Shown: positions 16,914 to 42,190 of the stretch, piece after piece
How positions within the stretch are numbered: the stretch's first letter is position 1
Layout: every line of letters starts with the position of its first letter
DNA from: an uncultured Phycisphaerales bacterium
GTDB lineage: Bacteria > Planctomycetota > Phycisphaerae > Tepidisphaerales > Tepidisphaeraceae
DNA: 64,000 nt
Direction of reading: 5' to 3'
NCBI GenBank assembly: GCA_963758525.1
Contig: CAVWVQ010000003.1
Coordinates: forward strand, 64,001-128,000
Made by a program: the position numbers and the translations under genes
Notes under the pieces: model-generated
What the model was told of the DNA's origin: nothing
Seen by the model: the letters and a program-made list of their open reading frames with translations, nothing else
The model's database searches: none

Positions 16914-17037
16914 TGCCGACAGCACACTCCATTGGCTGACGTCCACCCTCTTCCCCGCAATGCCTCCGTGCCCCCTCACATCCCTTACTTCCTCACCCTT
17001 CGTGCCTACGTGCCTTCGTGCCTTCCTCCCCTTCCCC

Positions 17038-17511
17038 CTACATCTCCGTCCCAATGATAGTCGACTCAAAGACCAGGCTGCCGTCGACGACCCCCTGAAT
17101 TTTGGAGCAAAATCTGCGGTGACGCACCCATTGCTTCTGCCCCACCAGATAGAGCCGCTGCCCCGGGCGGACAGCCTGGCGGAATCGAATCGCGTCGGCT
17201 CCCCCGAAGCCGATGAATCCCTGCCATTTCTCGTATTTGCGAACGTAAAACGAGGCGAGCTGAGCCCCCGCTTCGATCATGAGCACGCCAGGAAGCAGCG
17301 GGTTGCCGGGGATGTGGCCCGCGACCCAAAACTCGTCGGCCCGCGCATCCTTGTAGCCGATGATCCGTCCCAGTTCTGGCGCGGTATAGACAATCCCGTC
17401 GAGTTGCTCCATGTCCCCGCGCTGCAGATTGCAGCGGCGAATCTCCTCCTGATCGAACACAACACGGCTCAGGTCGATGACGGAGATGTCGTAGAGCAGT
17501 TGCGGCGGCAT
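17038..17511 (-). CDS. fabZ: FabA/FabZ-type 3-hydroxyacyl-ACP dehydratase
   Basis: GHIPGNPLLPGVLMIEAGAQL, RFRQAVRPG hotdog fold. Confidence 0.8.
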   Translation of the reverse strand: MPPQLLYDISVIDLSRVVFDQEEIRRCNLQRGDMEQLDGIVYTAPELGRIIGYKDARADEFWVAGHIPGNPLLPGVLMIEAGAQLASFYVRKYEKWQGFIGFGGADAIRFRQAVRPGQRLYLVGQKQWVRHRRFCSKIQGVVDGSLVFESTIIGTEM

Positions 17512-17559
17512 GATAAGCAGACAACCTGGAAACGAAGGCGAGTCTACGCGAAGCGGATA

Positions 17560-17772
17560 TTAATCAGCATCGTCGGGCGTCGATGCGGCCGCGCCCGGTT
17601 CACCTTCTTCGCGCCCTTCGAGGATCTTCTTGCGAACATCCTGGGCGGCAGACTTGATCTCCTGCATTTTCTTCCGAACGCGCGTCCCGGCGGCCTTGTT
17701 GCCTCCGTGCGCTTTGTTCACATCTTCTTCCGCCTCGGCAACCAGTTGCTTGAGCTTCTCGTATTCCTGCAT
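17560..17772 (-). CDS. Hc1 / histone H1-like small basic protein
   Basis: GNKAAGTRVRKKMQEIK..AQDVRK motif; GGAGG RBS. Confidence 0.85.
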   Translation of the reverse strand: MQEYEKLKQLVAEAEEDVNKAHGGNKAAGTRVRKKMQEIKSAAQDVRKKILEGREEGEPGAAASTPDDAD

Positions 17773-18062
17773 GGAACCTCCGTAAGAACCTGACTTAGGG
17801 GCGAAACTCTAATGGGAGGGGTAGGGAGTGTCAATTCCAGTGAAAAATGAGGGGTGGGGGAAAAGCCCGAATGTGGGACATCCCGGCGCGCGGGGACGAA
17901 ACCCGAAACCAGAATGAAATAATGAAATCCGAATGGCGAATGACCGAATGTCGAAACGAACCCTGCGGCCGCCGACAGGAGTTCTTCCCCTTTGTCCCTC
18001 TTAGTCCTAACCCTTCGTGCCTCCGTGCCTTCGTGCCTCCGTGCCTTCCTCGGGTGCCTTCC

Positions 18063-20344: not shown

Positions 20345-22132
20345 TTACTCCCACCGCAGCGATTCCACGGGATTTTTTCGCCCTGCCGCGATCGCCGGAA
20401 TCAACGCGCCCAGCACGCTGGCCAGGATCGCGATCGGCACAATCCATTTAATGTCGGTCGCGCTCATCTGGTTGGGAATCTTGTCGAACAGATACACCTC
20501 CGGATTCCAGATCTGCACGTGAAACTGCCGGCCCAGCCATGCGTGCATTTCGTTGATGTAATGCACGATGAGATAGCTGACCAGCAGGCCCAATCCGCTG
20601 CCGATGAGCCCGATGGTCAAGCCGTACCACAGGAAAATGCCGGCGACGCCCGCCGAGCTGGCGCCGACGCTCTTGATGATGCCGATATCCCGCGTCTTCT
20701 CCAGCACGATCATGTAGAAGATGCAGAAGATCAGGAAGATCGCCACGATGCTGATGACGCCAAACAGCATCACCGTCAGCATCTTCTCGTTCTCGATCGC
20801 ATTGATCCAAACCGCCTGGCTCTCCAGCCACGTCTCGACGTACGGATGGCCGGTTCCGGTGATGTTTGTCCCCTCGTGCGACAGTTCCACCGCGTCGACT
20901 TGCTTCTCAATCTCGTCGCGCGCGACGGCCAGCGACGCGTCGTCGGTGAATCCGGGCTTCATGCGGACATGAATTTCCGTCGTTCGCGCGGGAATTTTGA
21001 TCTTCTCCCCCGTGTCCAATGTCGCGTCCTGCGCATTCATCCCCAAATCCGACTGGAGCTGAGCGAACGACACGTAAACGTAGTTGTTGTCGTATTGCCA
21101 GATTTGCGTTCGGCTGTCGTCCACGAGCCAGTAATTTCGCTCGGACCGGTTGTTGATATCCGGGCTCGACTCCCCGGGATGAAATCCCAGCACCGTCAGC
21201 TTCAGCGGTCGGCCATAAATCCCCGGATCGTCCGGCAACGGCAGCCGCGGCCCAAGCGGCGACCCCCACGTCCCCGTCTTGTCGCGCTGAATCCCGATCA
21301 CGCCGATGCCGACGATCATCCCCGGCCATTTCGTGACATCCTGCCGCGTGCGCGGCACCAGCGACTGGTAATCGATCACCTCCCCGCTGTTGGAAATCGC
21401 GAAGAGCTGGTCGACTGCCTGCTTGAACTGCGCATCCTGCGACAATCCCCGCAGCAGCAGCCGATCCTCCGGCCCCATGATCCCCTTGAACATCAGCTTC
21501 CCCGCCTGCGGATCAAACCAGAATCGCGACGCCAGGCTTTCGGGGAGATTTGCCTTTCCCACTGAACCTTGAACCCTGAACTCTGAACCCTCCTTCGCGA
21601 GCCGAACATCGCCCGGCATATTTTTAAGCGGCACGCCGCACCGATCCAGCAGATCGAACGACGCGGGCTGCTTCAGTTGTTCCTGGAGCTGCGCCCGCAG
21701 CTCGGGCGAGAGCTTCGGGTCGGCCAGCATCTCTTCGAGGTTGGTGTGCTGCCGAAACAGCGAATCCGGAAACCGGTTCACATTTCCGATCTGCTCGATG
21801 GGAATGCCGATCACCTTCACCGCCGCCGTCGGGTATGGCCCGACATTCAGCAGACCAAACGTCTCGATGCTGGGGACCGCCGCCGCCACGCCCGGCACCT
21901 GCAGGATCTTGTCCATCATCTCCTGATAATACGGGAATCCCGTCAGCGAAGAGCTGCGCACGATGATGTCGCCGGTGAGTCCGTGGAACGACTGCTTGAA
22001 CATGTTGAGCCACCCGCCCATGACGCTGATGACCACCAGCACCATGGTGGTGCAAAGCATCACCGCCGCGAGGGAAACCCAGGCGATTCGGCGCTTGAGG
22101 AGGTATTTGAGGATGAGGAGGAGTTTGTACAT
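20345..22132 (-). CDS. lolC: LolC/E-type ABC permease (FtsX/MacB) with enlarged periplasmic region
   Basis: MYKLLLILKYLLKRR, VVISVMGG, IVLEKTRDIGIIKSVGAS, YLFDKIP, NPVESLRWE; lysS-lolCE-lolD order. Confidence 0.85.
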   Translation of the reverse strand: MYKLLLILKYLLKRRIAWVSLAAVMLCTTMVLVVISVMGGWLNMFKQSFHGLTGDIIVRSSSLTGFPYYQEMMDKILQVPGVAAAVPSIETFGLLNVGPYPTAAVKVIGIPIEQIGNVNRFPDSLFRQHTNLEEMLADPKLSPELRAQLQEQLKQPASFDLLDRCGVPLKNMPGDVRLAKEGSEFRVQGSVGKANLPESLASRFWFDPQAGKLMFKGIMGPEDRLLLRGLSQDAQFKQAVDQLFAISNSGEVIDYQSLVPRTRQDVTKWPGMIVGIGVIGIQRDKTGTWGSPLGPRLPLPDDPGIYGRPLKLTVLGFHPGESSPDINNRSERNYWLVDDSRTQIWQYDNNYVYVSFAQLQSDLGMNAQDATLDTGEKIKIPARTTEIHVRMKPGFTDDASLAVARDEIEKQVDAVELSHEGTNITGTGHPYVETWLESQAVWINAIENEKMLTVMLFGVISIVAIFLIFCIFYMIVLEKTRDIGIIKSVGASSAGVAGIFLWYGLTIGLIGSGLGLLVSYLIVHYINEMHAWLGRQFHVQIWNPEVYLFDKIPNQMSATDIKWIVPIAILASVLGALIPAIAAGRKNPVESLRWE

Positions 22133-22138
22133 GGAGCA

Positions 22139-22755
22139 GGTGATTGGTGATTGGAACGTGACTCAGAACTTGCCGTCTGCGGATGCTTCGGCCGAGCGTT
22201 CATTTGGCAGCTGTTGCCTCCGCGGGTCCGCTGATTGGTGAGTGGAACATGGCAAAGCGTCTGCGTTCGGTGCGTCGTTCAGTTGAATATTCTTCCGTCG
22301 CTCGTTGGCAGCCATACGGATCAACAACTTTGCCAATTGCGTCATGATTCCGATCCTATGGGCGGTTACTTTGGAGCCCAGCACGGCTCGTGCCTTGAAA
22401 TACCAGTCCCGAGTTTCGCGCGGAGCCGAGTGCGTACTCATAAAACCTCGCGCGGTCGCGTCCACTCCCGCGTGAGTAGCCTTCCGCGACGTTTGAACTA
22501 ATGTTGCCTGCTGCGCGACATAATTGGTCGGCGGTGGACTTGGCGCGGGCGTCGCGCATTAGCTTCGCGCCGTCATTCCAAGCCAGATCAGACGCAAACA
22601 GTCCAAGTCGGTACGCCTCCATCTTCCAAACAGAGTCACCTCGAATCTCCTCCGGAACCTGCTTCTCCCAGTCATCAAATGTCACGGCATCCCCGTCTTG
22701 TCAGGTTCCACGTTCCAATCACCAGCGCCTTGTCACGTTCCAATCACCAATCACC
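22139..22755. mobile_element. Inverted-repeat-bounded four-helix-bundle cassette
   Basis: Perfect 24-bp IRs GGTGATTGGTGATTGGAACGTGAC (22139-22162) and its reverse complement (22732-22755) enclose a single gene. Confidence 0.6.
22163..22685 (-). CDS. Four helix bundle protein (23S rRNA IVP / TIGR02436-like; frameshift near 22415)
   Basis: DQLCRAAGNISSNVAEGYSR...RFYEYALGSAR|ETRDWY. Confidence 0.85.
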
Positions 22756-24241
22756 CTGACGTCAAACGGGTCGGCGATTCCATCGGCCGCATCAAAGGAA
22801 ACAGAAGCACATCCCGTATGCTCTCCGCGCCCGTCAGCATCATCACCAGCCGGTCGATTCCCATTCCCATGCCGCCTGCGGGGGGCATTCCATATCGTAG
22901 GGCGGTCAGGAAGTCTTCGTCGGTCTTTTGCTTCTCGGCATCGTCGCCAACCTGATGCGCGAAGTTTGCCGCTTGAACGTCCGGATCGTTCAACTCACTG
23001 TAGCCAGGGGAGATCTCCGAGCCGTTGATCGCAAGTTCGTAGACGTCCGCGAAGAAGGGATCGGCGGCGTTTTTCCTGGCAAGCGGAATGATCACCGACG
23101 GAAAATGCGTGACGAAGCACGGGTCGATCAACGTCGGCTCGACGAGTTTCTCATACACCTCCACAAGCTGCTCTGCTGGCGACTTCCCGCGCAGGGCAAG
23201 CTGCTTGCCACCGATGTCCGACTCCCGGAGGTCGCCGAGTTCGATCGTCTTCTTCTGAAATTTCCACCCCGTCTTCTCTTCGACAAGCTCCGCCAGGCGG
23301 ACACGCCGCCAGGGGCGCTGGAGATTGATGGCTTTCCCTTCGCGATGGGCGATCTGCAGCCCGCCGACCAGCTTCTCAGCCACGGAGCAGATCATCCCCT
23401 CGACCAGGTCGGCCATGGTTTCCCATGATCCGAACGCCTCATACGCTTCGAGCATGGTGAACTCGGGATTGTGCCGCGGGCTGATTCCTTCGTTGCGGAA
23501 GTTGCGGTTCAGCTCAAATACCTTGCTGAAGCCGCCGACGAGGAGGCGCTTGAGATAGAGTTCCGGCGCGATCCGCATGTAGAGCGGGATGTCGAGCGCA
23601 TTGTGATGCGTGACAAACGGCCGAGCCGCGGCGCCGCCCGCCAGCGGCTGCATCATCGGCGTTTCGACCTCGAGATACCCCTGCTCCTTCATATATTGCC
23701 GGATCGCGTCGACGATCTGCACCCGCAGCTTGAGCACGCGCATTACCTCCGGATTGGCCCAGAGATCGACATACCTTTGCCGATACCGCAGTTCCACATC
23801 CGACAGCCCCTCCCACTTCGCGGGAGGCGGAAGCAACGCCTTCGACGCCATCGTCACCGATGTCGCCCAGATCGTGATCTCGCCTTTGTTTGTCGAGCCC
23901 AACGGCCCTTCAACGACGATCAGATCGCCAAGATCGATCAAATCGCGCACGCCCCACGCTTTTTCGTCCACTCGTCGTTTGTCGATCGCGATCTGCAGGT
24001 CGCCGGTCTCGTCGCGGAGGGTGAGAAAGCTAAGCTTCCCCATGTCGCGCTTGAGCATGACCCGCCCCGCCGCTTTCACCACGGGTCCGGCGTCGTGCCC
24101 CATCGCCGGCTCAAACGATCCCTTGATTTGCGCCAACGGCTGCAGTCCTTCGGTCCGCGTCCCGTACGGATCGACGCCCAGCTCGCGCAGCTTGGCTAGT
24201 TTCTCCCGTCGAATTTGTTCCTGATCGCCTGAGTCGCTCAT
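22751..24241 (-). CDS. lysS: Lysyl-tRNA synthetase class II
   Basis: RYRQRYVDL, GGAAARPFVTHHN, FRNEGISPRHNPEFTMLEAY, YGMPPAGGMGMGIDRL. Confidence 0.98.
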   Translation of the reverse strand: MSDSGDQEQIRREKLAKLRELGVDPYGTRTEGLQPLAQIKGSFEPAMGHDAGPVVKAAGRVMLKRDMGKLSFLTLRDETGDLQIAIDKRRVDEKAWGVRDLIDLGDLIVVEGPLGSTNKGEITIWATSVTMASKALLPPPAKWEGLSDVELRYRQRYVDLWANPEVMRVLKLRVQIVDAIRQYMKEQGYLEVETPMMQPLAGGAAARPFVTHHNALDIPLYMRIAPELYLKRLLVGGFSKVFELNRNFRNEGISPRHNPEFTMLEAYEAFGSWETMADLVEGMICSVAEKLVGGLQIAHREGKAINLQRPWRRVRLAELVEEKTGWKFQKKTIELGDLRESDIGGKQLALRGKSPAEQLVEVYEKLVEPTLIDPCFVTHFPSVIIPLARKNAADPFFADVYELAINGSEISPGYSELNDPDVQAANFAHQVGDDAEKQKTDEDFLTALRYGMPPAGGMGMGIDRLVMMLTGAESIRDVLLFPLMRPMESPTRLTSG

Positions 24242-24548
24242 GATCCGCTCTTCCGCCAGTCAAAGGGAGAGGATGATAGTCGGAAGAAGGCACGAAGGGA
24301 AAATGCGGAAGAGCCGCGGAGCGGGACGGAACGGAGTCGCAAATCGAGGCTCGCAAATATTGCTGCAGATTGCAGATATTGCAGATTGCAAATCAAATCT
24401 CAAACATCTCAAAATGTGAGTAAGCTTTGAGCCCGGGGAAACGGCTTGCATCGATCTCGCCGCACCTCGCCGCCGTGGCTTGCCCTTCGCGGAGCGACGC
24501 CGGCGATGAATTGCAAAACGCAGCAGCGAACTTATGGGTCTACCGCAA

Positions 24549-29317: not shown

Positions 29318-30193
29318 GTGACGGTTGTCAAAACAATCGCGGAGTGCCGGGCGGAACGATGGAAACTGGGGAAACTCGCCCTGGTCCCGACGATGGGGGC
29401 GCTGCACGCGGGGCACGTCTCGCTGATCGACTTGGCGCACGAGCACGACGCGGCAGTCGCGGTCAGCATCTTTGTCAATCCGACACAATTTGGGCCGCGG
29501 GAGGATTACAACCGGTATCCTCGGCCGATCGAGCAGGACCTCGCGAAGTGCGAAGCGGCAAAAGTGGATTTTGTCTTTCTGCCAGACGCGGAGGAAATGT
29601 ATCGGCCGGGATTGGCGGACATTGTCGTCGATCTGCCGCAACTCACCAGCGTTCTGGAAGGAAAACATCGCCCCGGACATTTCCGCGGTGTCTGCCAGGT
29701 AGTGGCAAAGCTCTTCAACATCACCCGGCCTGACTTTGCGGTCTTCGGGCAGAAAGATTTTCAGCAGCTTCGCGTAATTACCGCGATGGTCGAATCTCTC
29801 GATTGGCCGATCGAGATTGTTTCCGCGCCAACGCTCCGCGATCCCGACGGCATGGCCATCAGCAGCCGCAATCAATATCTGACGGCTGATGATCGCCGGC
29901 GCGGCCTGGCGATCAGCAAAGCGCTCTTCGCCGCCCAGGCCGAGTTCGACCGGGGCATCAATCAGACGAACCGTCTGTTGACGACGATGCAAAGGATTCT
30001 GCTCGAGCCGCACCTGCACATCGACTACATCGCCGCCGTCGATGCGCGGACCCTGAAGACGGTTGACGTCGTGCTGGAGCCGACAGTGCTCGCGCTGGCC
30101 GCTCGCGTGAATAACACCCGGCTGATCGACAATGTGGTGTTGGGAGAAGGCACGAAGGCACCAAGGCACGAAGGCACGAAGGGAAGGAACTAA
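29318..30193 (+). CDS. panC: Pantoate--beta-alanine ligase
   Basis: VPTMGALHAGH, SIFVNPTQF, RPGHFRGV, FGQKDFQQ, SSRN.YL, RLIDN. Confidence 0.97.
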   Translation: MTVVKTIAECRAERWKLGKLALVPTMGALHAGHVSLIDLAHEHDAAVAVSIFVNPTQFGPREDYNRYPRPIEQDLAKCEAAKVDFVFLPDAEEMYRPGLADIVVDLPQLTSVLEGKHRPGHFRGVCQVVAKLFNITRPDFAVFGQKDFQQLRVITAMVESLDWPIEIVSAPTLRDPDGMAISSRNQYLTADDRRRGLAISKALFAAQAEFDRGINQTNRLLTTMQRILLEPHLHIDYIAAVDARTLKTVDVVLEPTVLALAARVNNTRLIDNVVLGEGTKAPRHEGTKGRN

Positions 30194-30381
30194 ACGACAT
30201 GGCGCGGCACCAACATGCCTTTCCTGTCTCCCTCTCCATCCCTACAATTCACCAAGCCATGAGGGATTCACAAATGACGACGTTTAAGAGATTTGTTCAC
30301 GCTTCACGTTTTCACGTTTCACGTCTTCACGTTTCCACTCCCTCACTTCGTGCCTTCGTCCCTTCGTCCCTTCGTCCCTTC
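30146..30381. repeat. Inverted pair of GGCACGAA 8-mer arrays with a nested TTCACGT array
   Basis: gaaggcacgaaggcaccaaggcacgaaggcacgaagg ... cttcgtgccttcgtcccttcgtcc; also at 34746-34884, ~16997-17030, ~18011-18060. Confidence 0.85.
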
Positions 30382-34621: not shown

Positions 34622-34884
34622 GTAGGGCGGGATTCATCCCGCCGATTTGTTGGCCGGCTGAGAAAACGGCGGGATGAATCCCGCCCTACGATCGCAAAAT
34701 CTGCAATCGCCACAAATAAAAGTTACACCCAGGCAGACGAATACAAGGCACGCAGGCACGAAGGCACGAAGGCACGAAGGGTAAGGAAGTAAGAGACGGT
34801 CGATGAGTACTCCCTACAAAATCCCCCTTCCTTCCCTTCGTGCCTCCGTGCCTCCGTGCCTTCGTGCCTTTCCCCTTCCGTGCC
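34622..34884. repeat. REP inverted pair (34622-34689) followed by GGCACGAA inverted arrays (34746-34884)
   Basis: Direct reading. Confidence 0.85.
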
Positions 34885-35158
34885 TTTCCCCGTCTTCCCT
34901 CAGGGCCTTCCTGCCGTTCCTGCCCTCCCCTTGCAAATTGCAATTCTCCCCTTCGATCTGCAAGCTTTTCGGGATTGGCGGCCGGTGCAGCTGCCTGTTG
35001 ATTGCGCAGAATTTTCTTGCGATTCTGATGAGACCGCCTACACTCCGCGGCGAGCCGTTCGAAACCAACCTGATGGCTCGCTGGATCCCCATCGCGGGAT
35101 CTCCCATTCCAACCGCCGCTCATCTCGGTCTATCAGACTTCCCGGTAAGGACTGCGCT

Positions 35159-41835: not shown

Positions 41836-42154
41836 TGGTGATTGGGGGTGCTGGTGATTGGTGGCGCTGGTGATTGGTGATTGGAACGTGACGAGGGCGG
41901 AAACGTGAAGACGTGAAACGTGACAAAGCCTCGCCTTCGGTTCCCGATCATGTCTTCGCGCGCCCGCCGTCACATTCCGATTGGTGATTGGTGATTGGAA
42001 CGTGACGAAAGCGGGAACCTGAAGACGTGATCGGGAACTGACACCGAGGCTTTGTCACGTTTCACGTCTTCACGTTTCACGTCTTCACGTCTTCAGACTT
42101 CACGTTTCACGTCTTCACGTTCCGGCCTTCGTCACGTTCCAATCACCAATCACC
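41836..42154. repeat. Gene-less copies of the 24-bp IR (41869-41892, 41983-42006, reverse 42131-42154) with TTCACGT arrays
   Basis: Exact match to the IRs flanking the four-helix-bundle gene. Confidence 0.9.
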
Positions 42155-42190
42155 CGCCCCACCAATCGCCCGCGCCATCCGCGCGACCGT

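Follow-up and report, generated by a model that had tools for sequence, protein, structure and literature searches.

A four-helix-bundle gene between lysS and lolC/E within inverted heptamer arms, and a possible role for its protein in the spread of the repeat

Results

Anatomy of the cassette and its protein

The window analyzed here is a 64-kb stretch of the genome of an uncultured Phycisphaerales bacterium (genome G000). It carries a four-helix-bundle gene between lysS and a lolC/E-like permease gene, where an earlier note on this DNA had placed it and where gene calls and profile matches confirmed it (Table 1). The gene lies between inverted copies of the 24-mer GGTGATTGGTGATTGGAACGTGAC, a degenerate heptamer array composed of three heptamer-like units (GGTGATT, GGTGATT, and GGAACGT) followed by GAC. 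Exact sites of the 24-mer in the window are 22139-22162 (+), 22732-22755 (−), 41869-41892 (+), 41983-42006 (+), and 42131-42154 (−); all of the positions and inverted orientations reported earlier hold, and 100 shuffles gave 0 matches, even when 3 mismatches were allowed.

As the earlier note had stated, the stop codon of the gene adjoins the left arm and the right arm supplies the stop codon of lysS. Its description of the gene as exactly bracketed does not hold on the 5′ side, where the start codon is preceded by a 46-nt leader with a second, partial arm; the 3′ end contains a decayed arm. The folding energy of the whole cassette was unremarkable (z, −1.1), with pairing confined to the arms; the predicted arm pairing brings the lysS stop near the lolC start. 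The cassette had no match in Rfam. The first bases of the arm (GGTGAT, 22139-22144) are complementary to the 3′ tail of 16S rRNA in this genome (C3:27594 region), which may be a chance complementarity, as other arm types lack it.

Table 1 Features of the cassette and of related repeat sites in the window
Feature	Position	Strand	Remarks
lolC/E-like ABC permease, downstream host gene	20345-22132	−	ATG at 22132, 6 nt past left arm; TIGR02212 match, below cut-off
Arm, lolC side (24-mer, degenerate heptamer array)	22139-22162	+	Adjoins stop codon of the gene; 6 nt from lolC/E start
Four-helix-bundle gene (TIGR02436/PF05635), ~174 aa	22163-22685	−	GTG start at 22685; TGA 22163-22165 adjoins left arm; frame break at ~22412-22416 in assembly
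Decayed inner arm	22230-22253	+	Within nonconserved 3′ extension of the gene
Codon 23 (Glu) of the cassette gene	22617-22619	−	Covaries with heptamer base 4
Second, partial arm	22700-22723	−	In leader of the gene
Arm, lysS side (perfect inverted 24-mer)	22732-22755	−	Includes lysS stop codon, 22751-22753
lysS, upstream host gene	22751-24241	−	TIGR00499 above cut-off
Gene-less nested hairpin, ~340 nt	41837-42176		Three 24-mers (41869+, 41983+, 42131−); GAAACGT/GAAGACGT arrays; complementary unique spacers
Mosaic repeat sites	16963-18036, 20145, 24289-24478, 30149-30368, 34622-34931, 55680, 61234		

In this assembly, the ORF shifts frame near 22412-22416, giving 91 codons followed by 83 in another frame. 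A single public contig of 151 nt (depth, 2.5; possibly from the source sample) is otherwise identical, carries 2 extra bases at the break, and keeps the family motif GSARExRDWY in frame; the break is therefore likely to be an assembly error. Further frame breaks occur in the same genome in dnaE2 and in three other PF05635 genes (C3:4378474, C3:4532839, C5:136237, and C2:13691), which suggests that these too are indel errors of the assembly. The names dnaE2, infB, rpe, and accD are used here for genes that we take to be these from their translations.

The first frame alone scored 43.2 bits against TIGR02436 (cut-off, 24) and 40 against PF05635 (cut-off, 33.8). A structure model of a relative (P0001; pLDDT, 88) had its best Foldseek matches in 2RLD and 2GSC (TM score by target, 0.83 to 0.89), and it matched the fold of Avd, the accessory protein of diversity-generating retroelements (DGRs), with a TM score of 0.68 to 0.81 by target length at 8 to 11% identity. 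The earlier note gives the relation of the TIGR02436/23S-IVP four-helix bundles to Avd as known, and homology of Avd and PF05635 is confirmed in PMC10053308. Avd is described as a positively charged, noncatalytic pentamer that partners a reverse transcriptase (RT) (PMC6182149); RNA bases that are flipped out are bound through the same residues from different subunits of this pentamer (10.1101/2023.10.23.563531). By analogy with the solved relatives (2GSC, 2RLD, and Avd), the cassette protein would also be a pentamer. Related proteins were found in Chloroflexota, Verrucomicrobiota, Rhodothermota, Poribacteria, and others, and the top named records belong to Tepidisphaerales, which agrees with the earlier note.

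Gene-less copies of the arm in the same genome

Across G000 we counted 46 exact copies of the 24-mer; with as many as 3 mismatches allowed, the count is 69, and these copies form 51 clusters. Only one cluster, that at lysS-lolC, contains a four-helix-bundle (PF05635) gene. Enrichment of the 24-mer beside such genes, which the earlier note would have expected, was therefore not seen within the genome; we judge this to be the wrong test, the right one being the association across genomes described below. The genome has eight PF05635 genes. By eye, six sit between inverted arms (7 or 8 nt) of a type of their own, one has decayed arms, and one is unbracketed; five of the seven arm types counted are dispersed in the genome and two are not (1 and 2 matches).

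The placement of the copies was assessed with rough gene calls made for this analysis: 55 of 58 copies lay outside called ORFs and 3 lay inside. In 27 of the 58 copies, the GG end faced a gene end no more than 30 nt away, compared to 1 for the opposite end, and the outer end was most often 4 nt past the stop codon (7/27). Arm polarity was constant, with the GG end outward, and the purine arm came first in all 10 inverted pairs of the 24-mer, as it did in each of the 63 pairs that six other arm families form in this genome. Bases +1 to +4 after the arm were purines in 52 to 56 of the 58 copies, with A and G mixed, and 10 copies shared at least 7 nt of inner flank (null mean, 4.5; maximum, 13). 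An inverted partner was present for 36 copies (25 exact) and absent for 33 (21 exact), indicating that single copies are as well conserved as paired ones.

Are the gene-bearing unit and the gene-less pairs full and empty forms of one element, as the earlier note had proposed? An autonomous element moving whole between its 24-bp terminal repeats, together with an internally deleted MITE, would account for the perfect repeats, for the presence or absence of the unit at lysS-lolC in relatives, where one cassette is partly deleted (L003), and for the occurrence of the subfamily at many other sites. The gene-less pairs, however, have spacers of 21 to 238 nt that are unrelated to each other and to the cassette interior; none holds a gene remnant, and the interior matches elsewhere in the genome only through arm sequence. 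No direct repeat longer than 3 nt was present at the junctions of the 11 pairs. The filled unit occurs once, 33 of the 69 copies are unpaired, and the nearest located relatives share the lysS-lolC junction. A full and empty MITE pair is largely contradicted by these data, and we consider movement of a whole element highly improbable; an identity of the gene-less pairs as MITEs was rejected for want of a shared interior, target duplication, and cognate transposase ends.

The site at 41869-42154, which the note had likened to an empty form, does contain three 24-mers with an inner inverted pair around 124 nt, but these are parts of a nested hairpin (folding z, −21) and not a simple empty pair. 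Its two flanking genes were not neighbors in the relatives that matched.

Several other repeats accompany the 24-mer. A 16-nt motif (core, GGCTTGCCCTTCGCGG) has 68 copies in the genome, for example, at 24478 of the window; in 44 of the 68, a purine-rich arm of one type or another lies ahead of the motif on the same strand, and in 0 of the 68 does such an arm come after it. It lies inward of 10 of the 33 unpaired 24-mers, where it may replace the second arm. Other repeat families in the window (GGCACGA, GCAAATT, GGGAC, and TCAGGG arrays and GTAG REPs) form mosaics at many of its junctions, within which the 24-mer is usually outermost. Genes of the GxxExxY family (PF13366; G000:C3:275451 and three more) lie beside 8- to 10-nt tandem arms; the gene at C3:275451 has clean arms on both sides, and the 47 matches to its repeat form 19 clusters.

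Occupancy of the junction in relatives

We used 20 lysS loci, taken regardless of the gene from 24 family matches and 1 match of another family. lolC was downstream of lysS in 19 of them. Three of these 19 junctions contained the gene (one decayed), 10 were short or empty, including those of both congeners, and 6 contained other inserts or gene-less arms. The check for absence of the unit proposed in the earlier note therefore revealed filled, empty, and otherwise occupied states. A search with the gene detected the subfamily in 31 of the 141 genomes of the family. It was located at lysS-lolC in 11 genomes besides G000 and in five distinct metagenome loci, and all of these loci have inverted arms, the sequence of which differs between the 11 genomes; no relative was found that keeps the gene here without repeats. 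In a broader survey of 191 loci (duplicates kept), inverted arms with a score of at least 14 were present at 134 of the 174 loci with enough flank, compared to 26 for a direct-repeat control.

In a tree of lysS plus lolC from 37 loci, a set enriched for filled loci, filled and unfilled junctions were not clustered (12 changes versus 12.6 in shuffled data), and supported branches forced at least 6 changes. The cassette of the window was sister to that of L073 in both the host and the protein trees, its other located near relatives occupy the same junction, and the nearest proteins, although from different genera, have the nearest arms; the protein tree was built by a quick method from 58 rows, two of which are long, and has 3 starred branches. 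Approximately unbiased (AU) tests of four host clades (P = 0.10, 0.31, 0.13, and 0.047) mostly did not reject vertical descent. Horizontal swapping at lysS-lolC, considered in view of the differences between the trees, was not retained for the same reason. Because the near relatives share the junction, L073 is sister in both trees, and the AU tests are mostly nonrejecting, these sequence comparisons indicate that the cassette is an old resident of lysS-lolC that has been lost or replaced repeatedly and is no recent arrival.

Other occupants of lysS-lolC were BrnT-like genes, GTAG REP pairs, or gene-less arms (L005, L016, L019, L020, L013, L069, L071, L072, L011, and L018). The small genes among them are, by their look, presumably BrnT-type toxin-antitoxin modules. 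Judged from the sequences, the junction is an insertion hotspot. A second recurrent site of the subfamily, which we take to be nuoC-nadB, is occupied in five genomes with five different arms (L023, L035, L043, L047, and L050).

Gene-less sites were similarly variable. The junction after infB has a purine-first heptamer hairpin in 5 of 6 genomes (L241 and L247 to L251), the unit being different in each; in 4 of 5 relatives, the hairpin at this position is made of another heptamer. The rpe-accD junction is empty in 2 of 4 relatives. These comparisons indicate that gene-less sites turn over; the congeners are too distant for insertion ends to be mapped.

One PF05635 cassette of another subfamily (756 nt) lies inside dnaE2 (G000:C3:4375037-4378474; L246), where neither the two arms nor the overlapped gene interrupts the host frame. 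In G015 (L263), the same dnaE2 codon is occupied by a related cassette, also in frame, whose arms differ; the site has gene-less arms in G003 and is empty in G001 and G002. The overlapped frame is naturally stop-poor, with 0 to 4 stops in nine other genes.

Dispersal of the arm of the resident cassette

To follow the association across genomes, we ran three patterns, made from the arms of seven cassettes, on 141 family genomes; G004 was counted in denominators only, and arms belonging to the cassette itself, as well as overlapping matches, are part of the counts. Every one of the seven genomes tested disperses the arm of its own cassette, with 58 matches in G000, 20 in G093, 13 in G024, 27 in G047, 15 in G048, 27 in G061, and 40 in G156. 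In the remaining background, 131 of the 141 genomes had 3 or fewer matches per pattern. Arm variants were genome specific down to single letters, as between G047 and G048. The association of gene and repeat raised in the earlier note is thus found across genomes. Three genomes had 14 to 23 matches without a matching cassette (G086, G091, and G062; 96, 95, and 74% complete, respectively); the first has the subfamily with another arm, and in the other two the subfamily was not found.

A comparable situation may exist in Xanthomonas campestris, which has 186 GGGAATC repeats placed as here (PMC4692102). According to the supplement of that paper, repeat #15 is flanked by bccP and by XCC0516, whose protein is the solved family member 2GSC; the main text names neither XCC0516 nor the helix-bundle family, though the repeat abuts the gene.

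Could the repeats instead spread independently of the gene, be it through REP-type Y1 transposases, through slippage, or through fold-back repair? The gene would then survive between two arms as a passenger, and its protein would bind them only to control its own expression. Y1 transposases were present in all six genomes checked, three genomes have the repeats without a matching cassette, and lysS-lolC also gathers REPs and other modules. Arms built in the same way accompany the GxxExxY genes, moreover, so that the layout does not depend on a PF05635 protein; this suggests that one cellular route is shared and that each gene supplies its specific reader, and it also supports spread with a passenger gene. 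Such independence would leave unexplained why, in seven of seven genomes, the dispersed repeat is exactly the irregular arm of that genome's cassette, unless arms were converted to the repeat of the genome. It also does not predict that the nearest proteins keep the nearest arms in different genera, and of the 23 Y1 matches in G000, none has a 24-mer within 500 to 700 nt (another Y1-like ORF, not among the 23, has one copy in its vicinity). We therefore hold a passenger gene to be rather unlikely.

Covariation of residue 23 and heptamer base 4

We next compared the proteins with the units of their arms. From the 191 loci, split or stop-containing genes, arm scores below 14, duplicate proteins, and unregistrable arms were dropped to leave 101 cassettes, of which 86 had at least 2 usable units and 81 remained after mixed bases were dropped. 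In a scan of all protein columns against the seven unit positions, residues 23 and 117 stood out for base 4. Glu or Gln at residue 23 was accompanied by G in 50 of 51 cassettes and other residues by A in 26 of 30, for a total of 76 of the 81 distinct cassettes. The column was chosen after all columns had been scanned; the best split was 73 for residue 117 and at most 63 for the others, with a baseline of 54. Links at unit positions 1 to 3 and 5 to 7 were weak or driven by misregistered units and were discarded.

On a tree built without the columns of residues 23 and 117, residue 23 switches 13 times and heptamer base 4 switches 14 times, and 15,000 trait simulations reached at most 65 of 81. 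Four supported independent pairs were available and were never opposite (P = 0.125, too few for significance). The link also held inside groups, with 18 of 19 cassettes in the family of the window and 15 of 17 in Chloroflexota; the protein of the window itself has Glu23 with GTGA units. Covariation of repeat and protein type, a check suggested in the earlier note, is therefore seen at a single residue.

Because the letters of the repeat change with one amino acid, the protein likely recognizes its own repeat and would help to spread it; for spread driven by the protein, we see about as much reason to believe as to doubt. That gene and repeat form a partnership is well supported by the comparisons as a whole, since arms are kept at lysS-lolC, the nearest proteins have the nearest arms, genomes disperse the arm of their own cassette, and the residue tracks the base.

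Sequence-specific covariation of residue and base could also mark a domesticated regulator, whose binding sites at operon junctions would be the dispersed arms, maintained under selection. The 55 of 58 copies outside ORFs, often with the outer end just past a stop codon, are placed as such sites might be. The subfamily, however, is present in only 31 of the 141 family genomes, the same junctions carry unrelated arms or none in relatives, and decayed cassettes such as L003 exist; exact 24-nt copies would, in any case, require a copying mechanism. Domestication is, in our judgment, an unlikely account.

DNA or RNA as the level of recognition

The cassette could also be an intervening sequence (IVS) that acts at the RNA level: the arms would pair in mRNA, RNase III would cut, and an RT with the Avd-like protein would reinsert the RNA intermediate. 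A Coxiella IVS has the same make (PMC4990558), Avd partners an RT (PMC6182149), and the predicted pairing of the arms brings the lysS stop near the lolC start. G000 has six RT matches, none within the window. A stem under selection should favor G·U over A·C mismatches on the transcribed strand, and this was not observed either in the arm pairs of 120 cassettes (65 G·U versus 77 A·C; P = 0.36) or at gene-less junctions (33 versus 29; n = 39). RTs were not found in three of five genomes checked (G093, G047, and G048; 91 to 98% complete), and these three disperse arms. In two genomes, the cassette inside dnaE2 leaves the host reading frame uninterrupted, as if it were translated through rather than excised, and 33 of the 69 copies have no partner with which to pair. 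We consider an RNA intermediate quite unlikely. With no G·U bias, well-conserved unpaired copies, and an open dnaE2 host frame, we favor DNA sites over a selected RNA stem; RNA binding would still be compatible with these data.

Discussion

Our preferred reading, which we judge to have an even chance of being right, is that the cassette is of the rRNA-IVS type and that its protein binds its own arms as a noncatalytic adaptor, letting an enzyme encoded elsewhere copy the arms to new junctions. The protein would bind its own heptamer arms, probably in DNA. Its ring, predicted from the 2GSC, 2RLD, and Avd fold, would read one heptamer per subunit, a fair inference because the fold is Avd-like and Avd is a nucleic-acid-binding pentamer. 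A separate cellular enzyme would write the copies. Since the copies match the irregular 24-mer exactly, the arm would be copied from a template made of nucleic acid; for the same reason, we rejected protein-templated repeat synthesis as a sole cause. A pair might arise through fold-back copying or, at a break, through addition to each of the two ends. Either fits a polarity that does not vary, outer ends that are sharp, inner purines that are random, and the lack of duplication. The gene would move rarely, like a RAYT gene, and the arms often, like REPs.

Candidate catalysts are a Y1 transposase acting in trans and host repair. Since no genome checked is free of Y1 transposases, a role in trans may be envisaged for them. 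The term “transposase-free” used in the earlier note is thus apt in cis, as the cassette encodes no transposase, but not for the genomes, all six of which encode Y1 transposases. Taken further, the reading would define a new class of selfish element, in which the only gene encodes a noncatalytic ring protein that reads heptamers residue to base and directs a cellular enzyme to write the repeat at operon junctions; we put this forward tentatively, as a possibility that we would not yet back.

A literature search with little subscription coverage found no prior description of the link between gene and repeat. The link would join two open questions, namely, the function of S23p/TIGR02436 proteins and the origin of dispersed bacterial heptamer repeats. 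It makes a one-residue prediction, that Glu or Gln at position 23 reads G and Lys or Thr reads A. If arm spread needs the protein, this would be repeat mobility with specificity and catalysis in separate genes. If a ring-reader element of this kind exists, the family would be a source of dispersed heptamers, including GGGAATC of Xanthomonas, and of ORF-bearing rRNA IVSs, and its protein would be a reprogrammable repeat reader.

How does the cassette compare with known systems? Gene-less pairs resemble MITEs in being short and intergenic, in many copies with inverted ends, but lack a conserved interior, target duplication, and cognate transposase ends. Avd of DGRs (4DWL and 8UB8) is a noncatalytic nucleic-acid-binding pentamer with the same fold as the protein, whereas the cassette has no RT or template and variable repeats and has lysS and lolC/E as neighbors. 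The dispersed heptamers of Xanthomonas and Nostoc (PMC4692102) and TAACTGA of Beggiatoaceae (PMC4679880) are placed as here. These are reported with the purine strand just past stops, the opposite strand before starts, and convergent pairs, their origin being left unexplained there; the terms “four helix,” “S23,” and “intervening” are absent from the main text of PMC4679880.

The closest likenesses are to two other systems. In Coxiella burnetii, the ORF-bearing 23S rRNA IVS is described with a 28-bp stem, heptamers, and cleavage by RNase III (PMC4990558). The IVSs of Coxiella burnetii and Leptospira share with the cassette an S23p-family ORF within terminal inverted repeats (28 bp there and 24 here), tandem heptamers upstream of the ORF, and a patchy, decaying distribution; the cassette differs in lying in an mRNA operon junction and not in a 23S rRNA gene, in having arms dispersed without the gene, and in that selection for an RNA stem was not seen by the G·U test. 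As in RAYT/REP/REPIN systems, one gene is flanked by its own repeat type, which has many gene-less intergenic copies and forms inverted doublets without target duplication (PMC3116915), and the gene-specific repeat is dispersed in gene-carrying genomes, here in seven of seven. The cargo, however, is a PF05635 protein and not a Y1 (HUH) transposase, the unit is a tandem heptamer and not a palindrome, and, unlike in REPINs, singlets make up about half of the copies and are conserved like pairs. Our best reading is that the cassette has the anatomy of an ORF-bearing rRNA IVS outside rRNA and appears to behave like a RAYT/REP system with a noncatalytic protein.
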